Positions 15-63,012 of a stretch of DNA of 64,000 bases are shown piece by piece; position 1 is the stretch's first letter; the number at the start of each line of letters is the position of its first letter. Source of the stretch: Escherichia phage IME08. The notes under the pieces are model-generated. The model had not been told where the DNA came from. It did not search any database and worked only from the letters and a program-made list of their open reading frames with translations. The stretch lies in the sequence record NC_014260.1, one strand, 5' to 3'. Position numbers and translations under genes: made by a program.

Positions 15-2225
15 TTAAGCCGCTTCCACGGCTTTCATGAATTTAACGATTTGAGCTACAGAAGCCTCGGTAATGGATGTTCCACGACGATACATGTAGT
101 CCGAAACTAAATGGTAATCAGATTCAAACTGTACAGTCATTTTATCATTGTTGCTTGAAGCATTATTGGTTAACGTATTAAACGTATTGTTACAAATTCT
201 CTTGGTGATATTCAATTTATCATCAGTGATATATCCATGGAAATTCATATAACGGAATATATCATAGAAATTGCTCAGACGAGTATATGTTTCAGACACC
301 GGCTTATCACTGAAATATTTAGTCATAAAACCAAGCTCAGGGAACTTAGCAATGATTTCAAGATAATACCTTGCACGGGTATTACTGCCAATATAATCAT
401 CAATATCTACAGCATCTAATGCTTCGGCATAAGCTTCTAACGTGGTTTCCATCAAGCATTCGCACTGGCCTAACTTTTTAATCTTTTTGGCAATCTGAGG
501 GCGAATGATATGGAATTCGGTAGCACCAATCAAATTAGCCATACGGCACATAGTAGTGGTGTTGATGTCAAAGATACCATAAGCTTCGTCCATTCCCATG
601 ATATCAGAACGGCTGCCAAACAGAACATAACCGGTAATTTCTTCTGCTTCAGCTGCGGTCAAATACATGGTCTCTGTTTGCCAGCGCCCGTCTTTAATGA
701 ACCAACGATAAGCACTTGGCGTTTTAGGACGAGGTTCTGACGAACGAACCGTAACCGGAATCCATGGCTTAACAATTTTATTCAGTTCAGAGACTTTATA
801 AAAATGAATTGTGTCACCTTTAAAAAGTTCTTTAACCTTTTCAAGCTGCTGCATTTGCAACATTGAATTTGGGTCGACAAAAATAAGGTCTGTCCCGTAT
901 TTAGGAATATTGTGCTCTTTAACAATTTTCTTGGCTGAAGCACTGTTGTCCATTGCCAGGGCCCAAAGTCCTCGAACTAATGGCACACGGCCCTTTTCAT
1001 CATCATAAACAACATGGATTTCTTTCTTATTAATGCCTAATAAATTACTAAGTCCTGCTACCGAAGAAGTATTACCACTTGACTTAATTCGTTTCAAACG
1101 CGGGTCTATACAAACTTCATAAACAACGCCTAAATTAAGAAGGTCGTTTTGAAGTGTATAACGCTGGTATAATTTCTCGTATGTTAATTTTTCAGTTGTG
1201 AACTGTTTAGTAATGCCTCTTTTAGAAAGATAATCACGGGCACTATAACCAAGGTTAGAGAGGTCACGATAAACATGGCGCGGATTATCAGATTCAACCC
1301 ATTCCTTCGTATCATTTTTAAAGACTACCGCATCTAGTGCTTCAATACGGGTTGCAATATTTTCCATTGTACGTTTATCAAGAGACAGCACTTCACGAGA
1401 TGGAGCAATATCTAACGAACCCATAGGGAACTTAATATAAACTACATCATGGCGAGTACGCATCCATGTGCCTTTATTATAAGCTGAATCTAATGGATAG
1501 ACGATGCCACCATAAACTGCATAAAGACCTGAACGTTCGAAATCGCCATAACCTGTATCGGTTACCGGGTAGTAGTCTTCGAATTCAGGGAAATAATCAA
1601 CTTCAGCACCGTCAACATCGCCAAGTCCAATGAAAGGCCGCATGATATAACGAACTTCAGTTTCGAACTTACGGAAGTCTTCTTCGTCCACAGGAACTGT
1701 GATTTCGATACCTGTTTTATCACCTGGCTGCATAGGTTCGACGAAAGTAGGTTTAATCTGCGGCCCATCACCGTCCATATACGCTACATATCCACGAACT
1801 TCACCGTTATGCCATGACGTGATATTAAACGTTTCGGTATAACTGAACGGAGATTTTGAACCAAGACCAAAGCCACCGATAAAATCGTTAGAAGCTGTTT
1901 TGGATGATGCGAAATAAGAGTTATACAACCCCGTTTCGTTTTCATCACCACGAATTTGGAAATCACTCATGCCTGGCCCGAAATCACGGCATACGAAACG
2001 TGGGTCTAGTTTACCGGGAACCTGTACTTTCCAACGTTCTTTATTACCATTCAGAATATGGGCGTCAATCATATTAGTAATTAGTTCACGTACTACAGCA
2101 CGTACTTTATTACTATAAAGGTCTGATGACAGAATTTTAAAGACCTTAGGCGATGCCTGGATAGTAAAGCCTGTGGACTTAGCGCCATTACCAATGATTT
2201 GTTCTTTTTCGGTTTCAATAATCAT
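15..2225 (-). CDS. rIIA: rIIA membrane-associated protein with N-terminal GHKL-type ATPase region
   Basis: 736 aa; N-terminal 150 aa near-identical in pattern to T4 RIIA as recalled (RAVVRELITNMIDAH, FVCRDFGPGMS, GGFGLGSKSPFSYT); first gene in T4 coordinate order. Confidence 0.95.
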   Translation of the reverse strand: MIIETEKEQIIGNGAKSTGFTIQASPKVFKILSSDLYSNKVRAVVRELITNMIDAHILNGNKERWKVQVPGKLDPRFVCRDFGPGMSDFQIRGDENETGLYNSYFASSKTASNDFIGGFGLGSKSPFSYTETFNITSWHNGEVRGYVAYMDGDGPQIKPTFVEPMQPGDKTGIEITVPVDEEDFRKFETEVRYIMRPFIGLGDVDGAEVDYFPEFEDYYPVTDTGYGDFERSGLYAVYGGIVYPLDSAYNKGTWMRTRHDVVYIKFPMGSLDIAPSREVLSLDKRTMENIATRIEALDAVVFKNDTKEWVESDNPRHVYRDLSNLGYSARDYLSKRGITKQFTTEKLTYEKLYQRYTLQNDLLNLGVVYEVCIDPRLKRIKSSGNTSSVAGLSNLLGINKKEIHVVYDDEKGRVPLVRGLWALAMDNSASAKKIVKEHNIPKYGTDLIFVDPNSMLQMQQLEKVKELFKGDTIHFYKVSELNKIVKPWIPVTVRSSEPRPKTPSAYRWFIKDGRWQTETMYLTAAEAEEITGYVLFGSRSDIMGMDEAYGIFDINTTTMCRMANLIGATEFHIIRPQIAKKIKKLGQCECLMETTLEAYAEALDAVDIDDYIGSNTRARYYLEIIAKFPELGFMTKYFSDKPVSETYTRLSNFYDIFRYMNFHGYITDDKLNITKRICNNTFNTLTNNASSNNDKMTVQFESDYHLVSDYMYRRGTSITEASVAQIVKFMKAVEAA

Positions 2226-5993: not shown

Positions 5994-6015
5994 TTTATTT
6001 TCCTCTCATTTGTTG

Positions 6016-6053
6016 ATAGGGTAATAATATCACTACCCTACCATATTGTATAC
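6016..6053 (-). promoter_or_regulatory. sigma70-type early promoter (variant -35 GTATAC, -10 TATTAT) with conserved CTATCAAC block
   Basis: plus strand shows gttgatagg...ataata...gtatac 20-60 nt above the start of ORF 5775..5993. Confidence 0.45.
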
Positions 6054-14400: not shown

Positions 14401-14426
14401 CAAAAAAAGGAACCCGAAGGTTCCTT
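14401..14426 (-). terminator. GGAACC-UUCG-GGUUCC tetraloop hairpin + U7
   Basis: minus strand GGAACCttcgGGTTCCttttttt immediately after the soc stop. Confidence 0.7.
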
Positions 14427-18524: not shown

Positions 18525-18566
18525 GTTGATAGGTCTATAGTATCACTACCATAGACCGTTGTAAAC
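18525..18566 (-). promoter_or_regulatory. sigma70-type early promoter with full conserved block
   Basis: gttgataggtctatagtatca...gtaaac above sp. Confidence 0.7.
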
Positions 18567-19521: not shown

Positions 19522-19546
19522 AACAAAAAAGGAGCCGAAGCTCCTT
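19522..19546 (-). terminator. GGAGC-UUCG-GCUCC tetraloop hairpin + U-run
   Basis: minus strand GGAGCttcgGCTCCttttttgttttt right after the gene 41 stop. Confidence 0.65.
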
Positions 19547-27719: not shown

Positions 27720-30491
27720 TTAAAAGTCGAACATGTCAAATAATGTTGCTTTTTTCTCGTAGTCGATTTTAGCAGACTCGGTAAAACCAGTCAGAGGCTT
27801 GATAAAGGTCTTTTGGAACAGTACGTTGTAGTCCATCCAACGGAGGACTTGGTCACGAATCTGAACCGGAAGTTCAATACCTGACGGCCATGCCATACAG
27901 GCTTCACCAAACGGGTTGCCTTCTTTAAGTGGCAGTACGTATACCTTTTCACCATCAACGATACGAGGCATAGTCAAATCACCAGCAGAAGCACGCATGT
28001 AAGCTAAGCAACCTTTGATGTGGTACGGGCATTTAGAACCAGGGAATCCACCTTCATTATATTTCTCGATGTTGTTAGCACTGGATACTGCTGCAATGCT
28101 TACATAGTCCAGTTCGTTAAATTCCTTATTAAACTGTTTGAAATATTCTTGCAAAGATGCCTCGCCTTCCTGAAGCATACGACGGATACATTCTTTCAGA
28201 GCTTTCTGAACCGCTTTAGGTGTACTTGATTTCTGAGTTTCGAGACCCATGATTTTCAAGTGTGGTTCGGCATAACGAGTACCTTCCATGTCCCAAACGT
28301 TCAGTGCATAACGTTTCTTGCCTGTCCAGAATCCACCAAGACCTTTAGAACCAAGAGGAGGACCTGCGATAGCTTCTCGGTCCATGAACATCAAGTGCTG
28401 TTTGTTGTTCATGTACTCACACATCTCACGGAAGCCTGCATCAATAGCCGGTTCCATACGTTCACGTGCAAATTTATCTAAGAAGTCGACCCAGTGGTTA
28501 GTGTCACGGAATTTATCTTCGCCTACTTTATTGATGATTGCATCTGCCTTAACATAAATGGAGTCAGTATCACCATAGAGCACGAACTTCTGATTTTCAG
28601 TCTTACACACGCTATTCAGATATTCGTTAACCTTACGTTCAATCCATTGGAGGGCCATTTGACCAAACAGTGTGATTGCAGTTGCGTTCCTGAGGTCGTA
28701 GTAACGGAACCATACGTTACCAAGTGCACCATAAAGGGAGTTGATAAGCAACTTACGGTTAATCTGAGCAGTCATACCTGCAACTTCGGTACGTTCAGCT
28801 CTGAACAACATTTCTCTTAAAGAAGGTGCTGACAGTGTTTTAATCTTGGCTTTGATTTCGTCAGAGAAGTCAAAACGATAATCGATATCCAGTGGACTAT
28901 CAACTGACAGATTAGGATTTTCTAATGCTTCTTTAATTAACTCGCCATTACGTTGAGCTGCAAGCATATAACCTTTATGTTCTTTACGCTGTAAGAACAC
29001 CTTCGTGATTTCTGTAGGAATCACACCATCACGGTCTTTATAGTACATCATGCCGTTAGGAGAGCAACTGTAGACGTCGCTAGGACGCGGAGCTGTTCCG
29101 GCAATATATTCATGTATCGGTGCGTTAGCGAATGTGCCTGCGATGGTCTCTGGGCTTATATTCACTTGTCGAATGATACTCGGGTACAGAGATGTAAGGT
29201 CGAAACTCATTACATATTTGTAAGCGTTAGGAATCGGTTCCTTAACGAAAGCACCAGGATAAGGTTGGACCACGTGTGAACGAGCCTGTGGAATGACCCT
29301 GCCTTGTTCTTTAAGGCTATTAAAGATAATAGCATCCCAAGTCTTAATTGGACTGAACACCGACTGAATCTGCATCTTAGCATAATAACCCATGTCCAAA
29401 CTCAGAAGAATGAACTGGCGTTTCATATCAATCTGCACTACACGATATACGTCGATAATGTTATAGGAAATATATCGTTGGTGGTTCGTCTCACGCAACT
29501 TGGAGATTGGGCCATCATATTTCAACTTACCTACTTTCAATTCATATTCAGAAACATAATCCAGAGAATAAGAAGGCTGGTTGGTAAAGCTGAATTTTTT
29601 ATACAGGTCGATATAATCCAGAACAGAGATACCGAACAATGTAATAATTTCACGAGCACCGTACATGTTCTCGATAACTTTAACACGAGTCTTACGATGT
29701 GGGCTTAATCGCTTAGCAGTGTTCTCACCAAACAGATTTTTCAGACGGTTATAAACGTATGGTACGTCAAACGACTCAACGTTCCACCCAGTCAAAATCA
29801 CAGGAGTTTTCTGTTGCCAGAAATTCAAATACTCAAGCATCATTTCTTCTTCGGAATTAAACGGAAGATAAACGATTTTGTCAATGATTTCTTGTGGAAC
29901 TTCGTCACCACCTTCGTCTTGGAGTTTCTCAGCGATTTTAATCGACCACTCTTTGACTCTACCGTAAGGTGAAACTAAAAGGTCGAATACATAGAATTTA
30001 TCGTCAATCGAGTCGTAGTGGGTAATAGCATCGATAGGGTGTTTAGCCTGAGCTGGTTCAGGGAATCCATCAGGAGATGTTACCTCGATGTCGAAGTTAG
30101 CAATACGAATCTTAGAAGAATCATATTTGATTTCTTTACGATAGGTATCGGACAAATAGGCTAATTTGTAGTCGTCCATACCCAGGGCTTCGAGACCCAT
30201 ATCGTCCATACGTTTCATCCATTGGGATGCATCACGCATAGAGTCGAATTCTTTCTTAACACAACCCTTACCATAGATATCAATATATTTTACGGCTTGC
30301 TCTGGATTGGCATGCATAAACATTGTAGGCTTGTAAGGAACTTCACGACTACGTTCTTTACCATTTTTATCGATGTAACGTTCGAGAATATTATCACCGA
30401 TTTGTTCGACTGTCAAATAGAATTCTTGCATTTCATTTCCTTTATAGACGAGTGATTGTCTTTTGTTTGTTGATGAATCATTATACTCCAA
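27720..30491 (-). CDS. 43: DNA polymerase (family B) with 3'-5' exonuclease
   Basis: 923 aa; YGDTDS polymerase motif, FDIE exonuclease motif. Confidence 0.95.
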   Translation of the reverse strand: MEYNDSSTNKRQSLVYKGNEMQEFYLTVEQIGDNILERYIDKNGKERSREVPYKPTMFMHANPEQAVKYIDIYGKGCVKKEFDSMRDASQWMKRMDDMGLEALGMDDYKLAYLSDTYRKEIKYDSSKIRIANFDIEVTSPDGFPEPAQAKHPIDAITHYDSIDDKFYVFDLLVSPYGRVKEWSIKIAEKLQDEGGDEVPQEIIDKIVYLPFNSEEEMMLEYLNFWQQKTPVILTGWNVESFDVPYVYNRLKNLFGENTAKRLSPHRKTRVKVIENMYGAREIITLFGISVLDYIDLYKKFSFTNQPSYSLDYVSEYELKVGKLKYDGPISKLRETNHQRYISYNIIDVYRVVQIDMKRQFILLSLDMGYYAKMQIQSVFSPIKTWDAIIFNSLKEQGRVIPQARSHVVQPYPGAFVKEPIPNAYKYVMSFDLTSLYPSIIRQVNISPETIAGTFANAPIHEYIAGTAPRPSDVYSCSPNGMMYYKDRDGVIPTEITKVFLQRKEHKGYMLAAQRNGELIKEALENPNLSVDSPLDIDYRFDFSDEIKAKIKTLSAPSLREMLFRAERTEVAGMTAQINRKLLINSLYGALGNVWFRYYDLRNATAITLFGQMALQWIERKVNEYLNSVCKTENQKFVLYGDTDSIYVKADAIINKVGEDKFRDTNHWVDFLDKFARERMEPAIDAGFREMCEYMNNKQHLMFMDREAIAGPPLGSKGLGGFWTGKKRYALNVWDMEGTRYAEPHLKIMGLETQKSSTPKAVQKALKECIRRMLQEGEASLQEYFKQFNKEFNELDYVSIAAVSSANNIEKYNEGGFPGSKCPYHIKGCLAYMRASAGDLTMPRIVDGEKVYVLPLKEGNPFGEACMAWPSGIELPVQIRDQVLRWMDYNVLFQKTFIKPLTGFTESAKIDYEKKATLFDMFDF

Positions 30492-30512
30492 AAGGGACCG
30501 AAGTCCCTTTGC

Positions 30513-30728
30513 TTAAATTTCTATTGTAAAACGTTTAGTGGTTGGATTGCCATATTCGTCTTTAGTTCTAATCATAGCCTGGAAGACTTGCTGTCCTGGA
30601 TGTAATAACTTATGGAGGTCCTTTTGAAATTCTATTTGGAGCTCTTCGGAAAGGTCAAAAACAGTTTGAGTTGGGGAAAGTCCGTATACCTCTTTAAGAC
30701 GTTCACACGTTTCAATTTCAAGAATCAT
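30513..30728 (-). CDS. hypothetical small protein between regA and 43
   Basis: 71 aa from internal ATG immediately after the regA stop; longer track ORF overlaps regA out of frame. Confidence 0.4.
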   Translation of the reverse strand: MILEIETCERLKEVYGLSPTQTVFDLSEELQIEFQKDLHKLLHPGQQVFQAMIRTKDEYGNPTTKRFTIEI

Positions 30729-30729
30729 A

Positions 30730-31092
30730 TTAATTACCAATGGTGTACTTAGACAGTAGTTCCCAATCATTTTTCTGTTTAAAGGAAATGACACGGAAGT
30801 TATTGGTGATTTCGAACAGTTCAGATTCATCTACAATATCAATCAGTCCCCAATCCTTAAGAAGCTGAGCTATGGAATCACGACGCTGATAATCTTCACC
30901 GTCGATATCGACTTGTCGACCATCCATACGCAACATCTCTTTAAAGTGGACAATATAATATCGACCTTGCTTTTGCAAAATGTGACAGGATTGATATAGT
31001 TTCTTTTCTTTATTATTAGCGATACCCATACGAGTTAGGGTCTCTTTCACTTTTAGGAAGTCTTCAGGTTGTTTCAGAGTAATTTCAATCAT
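30730..31092 (-). CDS. regA: RegA translational repressor
   Basis: 120 aa; MIEITLKQPEDFLKVKETLTRMGIANNK... nearly identical to recalled T4 RegA. Confidence 0.95.
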   Translation of the reverse strand: MIEITLKQPEDFLKVKETLTRMGIANNKEKKLYQSCHILQKQGRYYIVHFKEMLRMDGRQVDIDGEDYQRRDSIAQLLKDWGLIDIVDESELFEITNNFRVISFKQKNDWELLSKYTIGN

Positions 31093-31098
31093 TTTAAT

Positions 31099-31671
31099 TT
31101 ACCATTCCAATGCTTTCTTTTTCAAGTCTTTTTGTTCTTTAACATTTTTGGTTACGGATTTCAGGAACTCGTCCGTAACCAACCCTTTCATCTTCTTAAG
31201 CACCGCCGGAAGATGGCCTTTAATTTTATAAGTCTCGAGATAACGATAAGCGTCATCATTATTAATTGAATGGTATTTCATCAATAAACGAGTAATAAAA
31301 ACTACACTAACTTCATCATCATGGGCCTTAGCCCATTTACCAAATCTCTTACCCTTAGGAACGGCATGTAAAAGATAGTTGAAATGACTTTGGTCATCAA
31401 GTTTCAAACAGTTAACCATTGCAGCCGGCATAATGCAATCCACATGTTGGCTCAAACTATTATCGAGCCAAAATTGATTGTAGTTTTCAGACTGAGCCAA
31501 GTTACGTTGGTTCTTACCATATGTGATATCGTTCATAATGGCAAACAATTCATTTTCAGCCTTTTCTTTAAATGAATCGGCCAAGGCTTGGATAGCAGCA
31601 TCGTTACGTTGTTTCCAAGCAACTTCATGTTCGTTCAGTTCAACGTCATCATCAAAAAGACTTATAGCCAT
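31099..31671 (-). CDS. 62: clamp loader small subunit
   Basis: 190 aa; LNEHEVAW, FNYLLHAVPKGKRFGKWAK, LKEVTKNVKEQK match recalled T4 gp62. Confidence 0.9.
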   Translation of the reverse strand: MAISLFDDDVELNEHEVAWKQRNDAAIQALADSFKEKAENELFAIMNDITYGKNQRNLAQSENYNQFWLDNSLSQHVDCIMPAAMVNCLKLDDQSHFNYLLHAVPKGKRFGKWAKAHDDEVSVVFITRLLMKYHSINNDDAYRYLETYKIKGHLPAVLKKMKGLVTDEFLKSVTKNVKEQKDLKKKALEW

Positions 31672-32621
31672 TGGAGCTCCAGAGCAAGTTGGATGAACAG
31701 ATAAGTCATGTGAATTTCCGGGTTGGCCGCAATACCGTGGTATTGGTTATTTTCACCGACAATTTCATACATTCTAACAATGCTTGGTCCAGGCAATTTA
31801 CCATAGAGTTCGTTAGCCAGTGTCATAATAAAGTTGGAATAGTCATTGACATGGCGTGGAGCTAATGCACGGAGTTCTTTAAAGTTTTTATCTTTAAGCG
31901 CAGCCACTACTTCATCGATAGGCGAATTGGTATTCATTACAATACTCAAAATGCCTGTATCGATTTTACCACTGGATGAGTAACGGTCCAGTTGGTTAAC
32001 TGTTTTACGGAAGTCAGGAAAGTTTTGCTTAACTAAGGCAGCAATAACTTTAAGGTCTTCGACTTCGACATTTTCGTTTTTACAGATTGCTACAGCACGA
32101 TGAATCATTTCTTTCATCATGGATGTTTGGTCTGCCGGAGTGGCTTCACCAAATTTAATAACACGACAACGGGATTGAAGTGGACCGATAATACCATCAA
32201 TATTGTTTGCTGTAATAATTACAGAACAGTTTGAGGAATAGGCTTCTAAGAACGAACGAAGGTGACGTTGAGCTTCAGCAACACCGGCACGGTCGAATTC
32301 GTCGATAACAATTACCTTACGCTTACCTTCGATAGATTTAGAAGATGCAAAACGAGTAAGTTCATTACGAACGAAATCAATACGGCAGTCAGAACCGTTA
32401 ACAAACAGCATGTCTGAATTTGTATCAGCACACAATGCTTTAGCTACGGTAGTTTTGCCCGTGCCTGGTGAAGCAGAGACTAGGATAATGTTAGGGATTA
32501 GGCCCTTATTAACAATGGCTTGGAGAGTTTCTTTATCATGTGCAGGCAGAATACATTCAGATAAAGTACCCGGACGATATTTCTGTTCCCACATGAATTC
32601 ATTATTATTTACTGTAAGCAT
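31662..32621 (-). CDS. 44: clamp loader AAA+ ATPase subunit
   Basis: 319 aa; EQKYRP...ECILP N-terminus and Walker A SPGTGKTT. Confidence 0.95.
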   Translation of the reverse strand: MLTVNNNEFMWEQKYRPGTLSECILPAHDKETLQAIVNKGLIPNIILVSASPGTGKTTVAKALCADTNSDMLFVNGSDCRIDFVRNELTRFASSKSIEGKRKVIVIDEFDRAGVAEAQRHLRSFLEAYSSNCSVIITANNIDGIIGPLQSRCRVIKFGEATPADQTSMMKEMIHRAVAICKNENVEVEDLKVIAALVKQNFPDFRKTVNQLDRYSSSGKIDTGILSIVMNTNSPIDEVVAALKDKNFKELRALAPRHVNDYSNFIMTLANELYGKLPGPSIVRMYEIVGENNQYHGIAANPEIHMTYLFIQLALELQWL

Positions 32622-32659
32622 ATTAATTTCCTCAGGTTTGTTTTTACATTATACTCCAA

Positions 32660-32676
32660 GGGAGGAGATTCCTCCC
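32660..32676 (-). promoter_or_regulatory. intercistronic stem-loop GGGAGGA-n3-UCCUCCC between genes 45 and 44
   Basis: perfect 7-bp inverted repeat with 3-nt loop; contains SD-like GGAGG; no following U-run so not a classic terminator. Confidence 0.4.
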
Positions 32677-32682
32677 TATGCT

Positions 32683-33381
32683 TTAGAACGAGTGGCTTGA
32701 GCCTGCTTCCATAGCTAATACGTAAGAAGCTTGTGAACCTTCAAACTTAGCAGCGAAACGAGCATCTTGACCTTCACCGCGTGCCCATAGCAATACATGA
32801 TAATCAGCCGGCATCATTTTCATATTAGTTTTGTTAATAATGAATTTGAATTCAGGGCCATCATGGTCTGCAACCACTAAGGAATACAACGGTCGAGTCA
32901 ATTCTTTATCGTCAACTTGTTTATAACCGTTGATAACGATTTTACCATTGTCTACAGTGATAGCAAATGTATCAATACTCAGTCCAGAGGACACACGCAT
33001 CAACTGTTGATAATCTTCGGCTTTAAGGTCAAAAATAACTTCAGCCACCGGGAACGGAATAGCTTTGCTTGGGAATGCAATTGTGCTTGGGTCGGCAATA
33101 GGCCACTTAATAGTTGAACGTTGGTCTTTAATAATTAAAGTGGTTTGGTCTTCACTTACTGAAACTTCAGCACTATCGGATACCAATGACAGGATACTTA
33201 AGAAGCCATTCAAATCATAGATTGCGGCTTCGATATCAAAGGTGTCATTTACAGTAGCTTCACCATAACTGGCACCCGTTACTGAACGGGTTAGAATAGT
33301 GTTACCAGGTTTAAGCATGATACCTGGGTTAATACCGGAGAAGTTTTTCAGAATGTTCAGAGTTTCTTTAGAGAATTTCAT
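32683..33381 (-). CDS. 45: sliding clamp
   Basis: 232 aa; alignable with recalled T4 gp45 (ILSLV.D.AE.S.SED, ITV..GKIVINGF). Confidence 0.95.
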   Translation of the reverse strand: MKFSKETLNILKNFSGINPGIMLKPGNTILTRSVTGASYGEATVNDTFDIEAAIYDLNGFLSILSLVSDSAEVSVSEDQTTLIIKDQRSTIKWPIADPSTIAFPSKAIPFPVAEVIFDLKAEDYQQLMRVSSGLSIDTFAITVDNGKIVINGYKQVDDKELTRPLYSLVVADHDGPEFKFIINKTNMKMMPADYHVLLWARGEGQDARFAAKFEGSQASYVLAMEAGSSHSF

Positions 33382-33409
33382 AATGTTTCCTTATCAAGTC
33401 AAAAATTAA

Positions 33410-33865
33410 TTAAGCAATAACGATCATTTGTTTACGAATGGATTCAGGCAGAGATTCAATATACTCTGGGATTTGGGAAGCAACAATAGCACCGGCTTCA
33501 AGCAATTGTTCGTCAAAATCTACGCAATAATCATCTTCGAGACGTTCAGAACCATCACGGTCGATAACCAGTTTAGCACCTGCGGCCAGTGAATCATTAT
33601 AGTGGCGACGCATAATTTCTACCCACTTATCGGATACGTCGTTATCAATGATACCGTAGAGCATGAACTTAGTTTCTTGTGGAAGAGACTGCAGACGACG
33701 TGCAGAGTCGGTATCAATGTTCAGTACCCATGATTTACGGATACGGTTTTGATTATGTGGGTTGGAATCAGTACGGATAGTTTTAACTTGGATATCTTTA
33801 ACAGTAATAGCGTTAGCAAACATAATATTTTCTCTCATTTGGTTGGTAGATGTATTATAAATCAA
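33410..33865 (-). CDS. hypothetical protein (rpbA position)
   Basis: 151 aa ORF after gene 45; positional assignment only. Confidence 0.5.
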   Translation of the reverse strand: MIYNTSTNQMRENIMFANAITVKDIQVKTIRTDSNPHNQNRIRKSWVLNIDTDSARRLQSLPQETKFMLYGIIDNDVSDKWVEIMRRHYNDSLAAGAKLVIDRDGSERLEDDYCVDFDEQLLEAGAIVASQIPEYIESLPESIRKQMIVIA

Positions 33866-50221: not shown

Positions 50222-50246
50222 CCCAAAAAAGGCCCGAAGGCCTTTT
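50222..50246 (-). terminator. GGCC-UUCG-GGCC tetraloop hairpin + U6
   Basis: minus strand GGCCttcgGGCCttttttgggttt after stop of ORF 50248..51258. Confidence 0.6.
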
Positions 50247-53522: not shown

Positions 53523-53553
53523 ACGAAAAAAGGTCCCACCGAAGTGAGACCTT
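53523..53553 (-). terminator. GGUCUCAC-UUCG-GUGGGACC tetraloop hairpin + U6
   Basis: minus strand GGTCTCACttcgGTGGGACCttttttcg after the rI.-1 stop. Confidence 0.6.
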
Positions 53554-53556
53554 TGA

Positions 53557-56367: not shown

Positions 56368-56907
56368 TTAGTATACCGCCTCAAACATCTTTTTAGATTT
56401 TAGGTAATTGGCCTTTTCTAGAACTTCAGAAGCATACTTACTGCCTGCTTTGACGTTCCAGCCCGCATTATAAGAAGCAATCGCTTTTCTCAGGTCACCT
56501 TTGTGAACATCAATCCAATAAGACAGCTCAATGTAGGCCCAAGAGGCACTGTTCTGTCGTTTTTGGACCATGCGAATTATTTCTTTGTCTGACATCTTCC
56601 AACCTACCTGTTGAACACGACTTCTTAACGTAGGCAAGTAATTTTGGAACATGCCATAAGCATGGTGCTTATCTTTATTTAAACCCTGATTAATTCCGGC
56701 AGATGATTCCTGCCATAGTAATCCGGCCATGATATATCCTAATCCTTTTTGATTAGGGTTTTCTTTGAACTTTCCCGACTTTTGGTATTGTTCACCGAAA
56801 GCATACGCATAATGTAAATTATCGAGTTGTTCATTACTGAAAGTAGGCTCTACGCTATGGGCAGACATACTAACTGTCAATAGTAAAGTGGCTAATACTT
56901 TTTTCAT
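56368..56907 (-). CDS. periplasmic lytic transglycosylase-like protein (SLT domain)
   Basis: 179 aa; signal peptide; GLLWQESS and AYGMFQ resemble SLT catalytic Glu-Ser and GLMQ motifs. Confidence 0.6.
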   Translation of the reverse strand: MKKVLATLLLTVSMSAHSVEPTFSNEQLDNLHYAYAFGEQYQKSGKFKENPNQKGLGYIMAGLLWQESSAGINQGLNKDKHHAYGMFQNYLPTLRSRVQQVGWKMSDKEIIRMVQKRQNSASWAYIELSYWIDVHKGDLRKAIASYNAGWNVKAGSKYASEVLEKANYLKSKKMFEAVY

Positions 56908-56919
56908 GAGACCTCATTA

Positions 56920-57378
56920 TTAAAGATAGATTACTTTCGTGCTGGTTTTACCTTCTAAACGTTTAGAGTTAACAAATGCCATACGACATTTAAGGGAATA
57001 TCCTTTATCAGGATGTTTACGGTCTACGGTCATACCTAGCCATAAGGTTTTATCGGTAATTTCGAGACGCAATGGACGATACACTTTACCAGGGACAATT
57101 TCGGATTCTACATCAGGCAGAGGTTCCTGGATTAAGAATTCATGGATTTCTTTAACATGGTTATGGAGTTGCTTGAATAAAGCAAAAACGTATTTTTCGT
57201 CGATTTCACGTTGGATAGCACGGTCCAACAAATGATTAGAGTACTTAATAAAGAAGGCTGGGACTCCGCTCTTAACGGCGGCTTTTTTGATGGACGCATT
57301 CAGTTCGCGGAATTCGGTTTCGAACTGACGACGTAATTTGTTGCGGCGGATGAATACTTCTGAATTAATTTCTGACAT
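56920..57378 (-). CDS. regB: RegB endoribonuclease
   Basis: 152 aa; EVFIRRNKLRR...HLLDRAIQREIDE...YRPLRLEITD match recalled T4 RegB. Confidence 0.85.
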   Translation of the reverse strand: MSEINSEVFIRRNKLRRQFETEFRELNASIKKAAVKSGVPAFFIKYSNHLLDRAIQREIDEKYVFALFKQLHNHVKEIHEFLIQEPLPDVESEIVPGKVYRPLRLEITDKTLWLGMTVDRKHPDKGYSLKCRMAFVNSKRLEGKTSTKVIYL

Positions 57379-62971: not shown

Positions 62972-63012
62972 TTTGATAGGTCTATAGTATCATGCCTATA
63001 GACCTTGTAAAC
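62972..63012 (-). promoter_or_regulatory. sigma70-type early promoter with conserved block
   Basis: tttgataggtctatagtatca + 17 nt + gtaaac. Confidence 0.65.

Follow-up and report, generated by a model that had tools for sequence, protein, structure and literature searches.

An RNA hairpin with an 8-bp stem was located between gene 45 and gene 44 of a JS98-like T4-type phage of the genus Dhakavirus, and a dominant GC hairpin of different stem sequence was found at the same boundary in 14 of 14 other T4-type lineages sampled. The core of the stem is invariant within Dhakavirus, and its flanks are related to the stem-loop/-10 module of the gene 43 promoter, P43. We consider it about an even call that this hairpin acts as an RNA element marking where the gene 45 message gives way to that of 44-62-regA. 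The window referred to below is the whole 64,000-nt (64-kb) stretch of DNA that was analysed.

Structure and genomic setting of the hairpin

A 551-nt query taken around the hairpin matched 48 JS98-like genomes at 92-97% identity. Gene order on the minus strand was as in T4 (46, 45.2, rpbA, 45, 44, 62, regA, a small ORF and 43), and the regA ORF of the window matched Pfam Translat_reg (E = 5e-59). The original prediction, made from this DNA alone, described a 7-bp stem with a 3-nt loop and no U-run between genes 45 and 44. Homologues of both genes do flank the site (Table 1), and the plus strand at 32660-32676 reads GGGAGGA-GAT-TCCTCCC, giving GGGAGGA-AUC-UCCUCCC in the mRNA (minus strand). An additional pair, A32677 with U32659, extends the stem beyond the 7 bp described. 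The stability of the hairpin was estimated at approximately -12.5 kcal/mol, and the 8-bp form was the centroid structure of the local fold. It begins 5 nt past the gene 45 UAA stop and finishes 37 nt ahead of the gene 44 AUG, in the context UAA (45 stop)-AGCAU-AGGGAGGA-AUC-UCCUCCCU-UGGAGUAUAAUGUAAAAACAAACCUGAGGAAAUUAAU-AUG (44). The gene 44 ribosome-binding region is similar to the RegA operator of T4 gene 44, AAAUUAUGAUU (PMC3014915). An ORF at 56368-56907, considered as a candidate for regB, was rejected as vs.1-like with a weak SLT-domain match.

Table 1. Coordinates of the features discussed; positions are those of the window unless another genome or contig is named.
Feature	Coordinates	Strand	Remarks
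Gene 45 homologue, sliding clamp	32683..33381	-	Upstream cistron
Gene 45 stop UAA (32685-32683) and AGCAU	32678..32685	-	Left flank of the hairpin
RNA hairpin	32659..32677	-	5' arm AGGGAGGA 32677-32670; loop AUC 32669-32667; 3' arm UCCUCCCU 32666-32659
13-mer UUGGAGUAUAAUG adjoining the stem	32647..32659	-	Unpaired GGAG 32657-32654; perfect TATAAT 32653-32648
Gene 44 ribosome-binding region GAGGAAAUUAAUAUG	32619..32633	-	Outside the hairpin; conserved across genera
Gene 44 homologue, clamp-loader large subunit	31662..32621	-	Downstream cistron
Paralogous module upstream of gene 43	30479..30510	-	Hairpin AAAGGGAC-UUCG-GUCCCUUU 30510-30491, then UUGGAGUAUAAUG 30491-30479
regB homologue, GGAG-specific endoribonuclease	56923..57378	-	98% identical to annotated JS98 RegB
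Homing-endonuclease ORF or fragments at the 45-44 junction	L001 (MX01) 1768-2334; L007 ~2199-2700; L030 (Moonvirus NM4.3) 1287-1867		

Palindromes of this pattern with no more than two mismatches were expected 0.03 times per window and seen once, the exact palindrome being present in a single copy in the 64 kb. Strong hairpins are common in the intergenic regions of the window. Perfect 7-bp hairpins with at least 5 G/C were seen 8 times against 0.9 expected per window, and GC-rich perfect hairpins are therefore an enriched class. The 45-44 spacer of the window gained only modestly in folding over its dinucleotide shuffles (z = -1.4, p ~0.1), so that support for the element rests on comparison with relatives. 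A search of 30300-33500 with Rfam covariance models returned no match at E <= 1. A metagenome pattern scan for further copies of the palindrome type gave 8 matches, all in unrelated GC-rich contexts, and the equivalent scan of viral contigs added no genomes.

The hairpin shares with Rho-independent terminators a GC-rich stem right after a stop codon but lacks the U tract. The predicted absence of a U-run held: the tail 3' of the stem is UGGAGUAUAAUG, the terminator scan of the window did not flag the hairpin, and its d'Aubenton-Carafa-type score was -33, where terminators exceed 0. The loop, AUC closed by an A-U pair, also falls outside the C(UUCG)G tetraloop class to which other hairpins of the window belong. 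Four such hairpins follow genes at 14407-14426, 19529-19546, 50227-50246 and 53529-53554 (-) with A-run/U-run flanks, and are by sequence terminator-like and typical of T4-type phages.

Conservation within Dhakavirus and across T4-type lineages

The original prediction held that a stem not conserved in relatives would count against any function. This refuting condition was not borne out: the 7-bp core was invariant in 12/12 Dhakavirus genomes, in which the loop took eight forms (AUC, AUU, AAU, GAU, UAU, GAA, AUAU and UA). Among the 11 distinct sequences the outer pair was A-U in nine, G-U in one and U-A in ESCO10, the most divergent; all 88/88 pair cells were paired. The one double change, from A-U to U-A, makes covariation within the genus minimal (one pair, 39/500 shuffles). 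Six Dhakavirus genomes were additionally aligned over 862 nt and variable columns counted. Variation reached 19.5% of columns at the 3' end of gene 45 and 8% at the 5' end of gene 44, compared with 0/14 in the stem, 1/58 in the spacer outside the loop and 3/3 in the loop. The entire spacer is therefore constrained more than the neighbouring codons, whereas the loop is unconstrained or hypermutable. Variants of the loop (32667-32669) include changes of length and the reverse-complement pairs ATC/GAT and ATT/AAT. Such variability could result from palindrome-mediated template switching or from a mere lack of constraint. Flipping of the loop through inversion of the palindrome was considered and set aside, as TAT, GAA, ATAT and TA also occur and the process is inseparable from an unconstrained or hypermutable loop.

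Two natural alleles, those of MX01 and the IMG/VR contig L007, carry neither the spacer nor the hairpin and are viable; a phage can therefore do without the element or replace it, which counts against the boundary role proposed below. A 189-aa ORF takes the place of the spacer between 45 and 44 in both. The MX01 ORF matched PHROG 314 'homing endonuclease' (E = 8.5e-16), and a Pfam search with it gave no family. In the insert alleles the N-terminus of gp44 is altered, reading MSKVVNGLTINENDF... versus MLTVNNNEF.... Annotated degenerate GIY-YIG/Seg fragments lie at the 45-44 junction of Moonvirus NM4.3, and these three cases together mark the 45|44 boundary as a recurrent homing site. MX01 and L007 have another strong hairpin (-14 kcal/mol) 44-72 nt past the 45 stop, inside the endonuclease ORF (L001 1812-1840; L007 2243-2271), which is retained despite the stem changes U-G to U-A and C-G to U-G. 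This insert hairpin may regulate the endonuclease or stand in for the lost boundary hairpin.

For comparison across lineages, the 45-to-44 spacers (48-75 nt) of T4, two more Tequatrovirus, Gaprivervirus, Winklervirus, Karamvirus, Roskildevirus, Mosigvirus, Lazarusvirus, Jiangsuvirus, Tulanevirus, Krischvirus (RB49), Pseudotevenvirus and two uncultured lineages were used. One dominant GC hairpin was present in every one, with a stem sequence different from that of the window; most are C(UUCG)G tetraloops on unrelated stems, such as AGGGC-UUCG-GCCUU in T4 and GGAUGGUC-UUCG-GACCAUCC in Karamvirus. All spacers folded better than their own dinucleotide shuffles (p 0.007-0.107; 14 spacers from 13 genera), with a Fisher combined p of 5e-9 when one spacer per genus was taken. 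Terminator-grade U tails were found in only 2/15, Winklervirus and Tulanevirus, and the hairpin itself is therefore the conserved property. The distances from stop to hairpin (2-32 nt) and from hairpin to gene 44 start (approximately 12-37 nt) are not conserved across genera; a generic end or barrier element fits this variation and a precise translational device does not. The conserved feature is a stable hairpin somewhere in the spacer, and neither a canonical terminator nor a fixed ribosome geometry.

The T4 45/44 hairpin (31867-31916), UAAUAG-AGGGC-UUCG-GCCUU-UAUAAUUU, has in common with that of the window its junction, its strand and the order of stop codon, GC hairpin, TATAAT-like element, A-rich tract and UGAGGAAAUU ribosome-binding site. 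The window stem is unrelated to it and longer (8 versus 4-7 bp), its hypervariable 3-nt loop replaces UUCG, and its tail is less U-rich. The T4 hairpin is a member of the class of stable intercistronic hairpins that Tuerk et al. reportedly described in 1988. In Mosigvirus (RB69 and phi25-307), UGGAGGA-GAAA-UCCUCCA occupies the same junction with nearly the same stem core, GGAGGA/UCCUCC. ESCO10, with AUGGGAGGAGAAUCCUCCCAUGG, comes close to the AUGGAGGAGAAAUCCUCCAG of RB69, its apex GGAGGA-GAA-UCCUCC being nearly identical to that of Mosigvirus, and this likeness suggests from sequence that hairpin apices may have been exchanged between phages. In other respects Mosigvirus differs from the window: the flanks are unrelated, the RB69 loop has 4 nt, a MotA-box/-10 pair stands upstream of the hairpin and no GGAGUAUAAU follows it.

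This MotA-box/-10 pair lies directly upstream of the hairpin in both Mosigvirus spacers (RB69, L052 2132-2206 (-); phi25-307, L024 1288-1362) and in RB69 consists of AAAGCTTTA, 12 nt and TACGAT. A transcript from such a pair would start at or near the stem, making the hairpin a possible 5'-terminal stabilising structure and the pair a possible unlisted P44. Elements resembling a -10 were also seen just upstream of the hairpins of Tulanevirus (TGATATAAT), Winklervirus and RB49 (TATAAT).

Relationship to the gene 43 promoter module

The 13-mer UUGGAGUAUAAUG is present exactly twice in the 64 kb, its second copy adjoining the C(UUCG)G hairpin that precedes gene 43. This gene 43 module is the homologue of the P43 region of T4 and RB69. 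P43 is a mapped middle promoter of T4 with its start at 29933; P45 and P45.2 are likewise tabulated, and no promoter is listed for gene 44 (PMC2988021). In the current T4 record position 29933 is 5 nt downstream of the TATAAT of this module. The modules before gene 43 read TAAGCAA-GGGGC-TTCG-GCCCC-TTAT-TTGGAGTATAAT in T4 and TAAAGCAAT-GGGAC-TTCG-GTCCC-ATT-TGGAGTATAAT in RB69. The P43 modules of T4, RB69 and the window share with the 45-44 element the hairpin flanks TAA(A)GCA-nn-GGGA ... TCCC-(n)-TTGGAGTATAAT, which in the 45-44 spacer of the window take the form TAAAGCA..GGGA / TCCC..TTGGAGTATAATG. The left flank there, UAAAGCAU-A-GGGA, resembles the UAA(A)GCAA-GGG(A/G) of the P43 modules; the two window copies agree in this part (UAAAGCAUA-GGGA versus UUAAGCAAA-GGGA), and both run on into AACAAAC.

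Local alignments were assessed against shuffled sequences. The 45-44 spacer of the window gave p = 0.001 with the window P43 module and p = 0.0025 with that of T4, and the Gaprivervirus 45-44 spacer gave p < 0.0005 with the T4 P43 module. The window and Gaprivervirus spacers are themselves orthologous over 44 nt. The 45|44 spacer of these two genera therefore contains a copied P43 stem-loop/-10 cassette. Its apex has changed: GGAAUCUCC stands in the window where P43 has CUUCGG, and the (A/G)CTT core resembling a MotA box is lost as a result. The hypervariable loop now occupies the site at which a MotA box would be required, 12±1 bp upstream of the -10. Gaprivervirus keeps a hairpin, GGGGCTTCGGCCCC, while its -10 has decayed to TACAAA; unlike the hairpin, the promoter half has therefore not been maintained in both sister genera. 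From its sequence, the Dhakavirus 45|44 element looks like a P43 cassette copy with an exchanged apex, its MotA box gone.

In the gene 43 module of the window, the hairpin apex includes ACTT, a core resembling a MotA box, at 13 nt from the downstream TATAAT, and promoter recognition in DNA and hairpin formation in RNA therefore share bases. The hairpin of that module is of the same kind and stands at the end of the following unit, between regA and gene 43.

Proposed function and alternative readings

Intercistronic hairpins shield upstream mRNA from 3' exonucleases. As proposed here, the hairpin would form on the mRNA just past the gene 45 stop codon and block 3'-to-5' exonucleases, and it might also be a weak, non-canonical attenuator of RNA polymerase; given the missing U-run, any termination at the site would have to be non-canonical. 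Transcripts ending or cut downstream of the hairpin would leave a stable gene 45 mRNA, and expression of the clamp would thus be uncoupled from, and higher than, that of the catalytic clamp loader, and would be kept apart from regA as well. The element would have originated as the stem-loop of a P43-related stem-loop/-10 cassette, a changed apex having removed the MotA box. We infer this role in mRNA stability and attenuation from where the hairpin lies, from its counterpart before gene 43 and from the in vivo attenuation of transcription by PeSL stem-loops in the T4-type phages RB49 and phi1 (PMC2839356). The invariant stem and the hairpins of other lineages likewise favour the RNA stability or processing element that was one of two functions originally offered. 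The other, coupling of 45 and 44 translation, found no support, as distances vary between genera and the Shine-Dalgarno (SD) sequence of gene 44 lies outside the hairpin.

The PeSL and PmSL promoter-stem-loop cassettes of T4-type phages (Arbiol 2010, PMC2839356; Comeau 2014, PMC4122927) are the nearest described composites. Their stem-loops are thought to attenuate upstream transcription. The window element resembles them in its succession of stop codon, stem-loop, -10, SD and start codon, with the stem-loop between the upstream stop codon and the downstream SD/ATG, and in having more than one related copy in the genome. PeSL cassettes carry sigma-70-type -35 and -10 hexamers about 17 bp apart and occur in many conserved copies, mostly in hyperplastic regions beside variable ORFs. 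The window element differs from these composites in having neither a -35 nor a MotA box and in lying within the conserved core of replication genes, outside the hyperplastic regions; only two related copies were found here, both in the core replication cluster. Related stem-loops within sequences resembling T4-type early promoters were observed elsewhere in the window, at 62978-63005, 18532-18557 and 6014-6043 (-); they look by sequence like genuine PeSL cassettes and unlike the 45-44 element. In one example, UUUACA-aGGUCUAUAGgcaugaUACUAUAGACC, TTTACA is separated by approximately 17 nt from TACTAT and the stem spans both spacer and -10.

The kinship with P43 raises the alternative that the site is a working promoter, middle-type or -10-only, from which the 44-62-regA transcript would start approximately 5-7 nt past the TATAAT, the hairpin mainly insulating it from transcription arriving from upstream. 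The significant P43 alignments speak for this reading, as do the 13-mer TTGGAGTATAATG, identical to that of the P43-type module of the window and matching that of T4 at 12/12 positions, the mapped P43 start at the corresponding distance from its TATAAT, the retention of GGAGTATAAT in the divergent ESCO10, the -10-like or MotA-like elements of the RB69 and Tulanevirus spacers, and promoter predictions by the annotators of RB49 and Lutter. With the consensus (a/t)(a/t)(a/t)TGCTTtA placed 12+/-1 bp upstream of a TAnnnT -10, however, no MotA box was found, the position being held by GAGGAAUCU, which overlaps the hypervariable loop. The -35 position (GGGAGG/GGAGGA) matched at only 1-2/6, no TGn was present, and the promoter scan flagged nothing at the site. 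The TACAAA of the sister genus and the T4 middle-promoter table, which has P43 and P45 and no P44 (PMC2988021), count further against a promoter, and we regard it as unlikely. A plus-strand MotA box, TATGCTTTA, beside the hairpin was rejected, having no TAnnnT 12+/-1 bp downstream and being the reverse complement of the stop-codon flank. Processing by RegB is rated somewhat lower again. The hairpin would keep the GGAG at 32657-32654 single-stranded for RegB/S1, and a cut there would separate the messages into a hairpin-capped gene 45 RNA and a 5'-OH 44-62-regA RNA, an outcome that would be compatible with the boundary element. RegB cuts intergenic GGAG before A-rich sequence, with consensus GG*AGRAYARAA, and secondary structure protects GGAG (PMC3014915). 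The window encodes regB, and at the boundary the stem encloses one GGAG, whereas a second lies exposed and is followed by UAUAAUGUAAAAACAAAC; the post-stem GGAG is common to Gaprivervirus and to the P43 modules of T4 and RB69, and processing is reported to stimulate gp43 synthesis (PMC3014915). Beyond the GGAG, however, the site matches GGAGRAYARAA at only 4/7, RegB spares most middle transcripts (PMC3014915), and the GGAG may owe its conservation only to its place in the P43-like -10 flank. GGAG is missing from the 45-44 spacer in T4 and the majority of other genera, and RegB cleavage therefore cannot be the conserved function.

It is decidedly improbable that the palindrome acts chiefly as DNA, as a hot spot for recombination or homing (by cassette exchange or as an endonuclease target) with the RNA fold secondary. 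The homing-endonuclease ORFs or remnants that occupy precisely this site in MX01, L007 and Moonvirus NM4.3 point in that direction, together with the hypervariability of the loop and the reverse-complement pairs among its variants, the combination of P43-like flanks with a Mosigvirus-like apex, and recombination of RB49 PeSL mapped within the stem-loop loop (PMC2839356). Hairpins of differing sequence across all genera and strong purifying selection over the whole spacer nevertheless indicate an expressed function, and inversion leaves the loop variants TAT, GAA, ATAT and TA unexplained. Still less credit is given to a translational device in which the SD/anti-SD-like arms tune the coupling of 45 termination to 44 initiation or sequester a ribosome-binding site. 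The arms are GGAGG/CCUCC-like, and because the stem begins 5 nt past the stop, a ribosome cannot terminate there without opening the 5' arm. Against this, the SD in the stem has no start codon 5-10 nt downstream, and the gene 44 SD and RegA-operator-like site lies 27 nt downstream, unpaired and outside the hairpin; in a constrained fold that kept the 5' arm from pairing, the 3' arm still did not pair with the gene 44 SD. Stop and start distances vary widely across genera, most stems are not SD-like, and an AUG-UAA mini-ORF past the second GGAG is missing in ESCO10, Gaprivervirus and the T4 P43 module. Two candidates of this kind were accordingly discarded: pairing of the 3' arm and loop with the gene 44 SD (GAGGAAAU), which did not appear in the constrained fold and is not conserved in other genera, and the start-stop mini-ORF GGAG-UAUA-AUG-UAA, whose AUG those same three copies lack. 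Since the SD-like GGAGG serves no start codon and most genera have unrelated stems, it is probably incidental, a by-product of the G-rich arm. A translation-sensing switch is given hardly any credence. Ribosomes at the 45 stop would melt the 5' arm, and the freed CUCC would hide the adjacent GGAG; with gene 45 untranslated, the hairpin would re-form, leaving the GGAG open to RegB or the TATAAT DNA open to polymerase, and translation of the clamp would then decide what becomes of the 44-62-regA message. The constrained fold does yield the CUCC/GGAG pairing and regB is present, but the feature is absent from most genera.

The boundary element remains our preferred reading, and the hairpin would best be annotated as a stem-loop/transcript-boundary element, neither a terminator nor a ribosome-binding site. 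As a class it is already known, stable intercistronic hairpins of T4-type phages having been recognised since the 1980s, and the window adds one more sequence variant. Modestly new are the universal presence of a hairpin at the 45|44 boundary and the descent of the Dhakavirus version from a P43 cassette, which offers a concrete case of the reuse and remodelling of a regulatory cassette. A boundary hairpin has been kept in every sampled lineage of the Straboviridae despite complete turnover of its sequence, an argument that these phages share a need to separate clamp expression from clamp-loader expression in their RNA.
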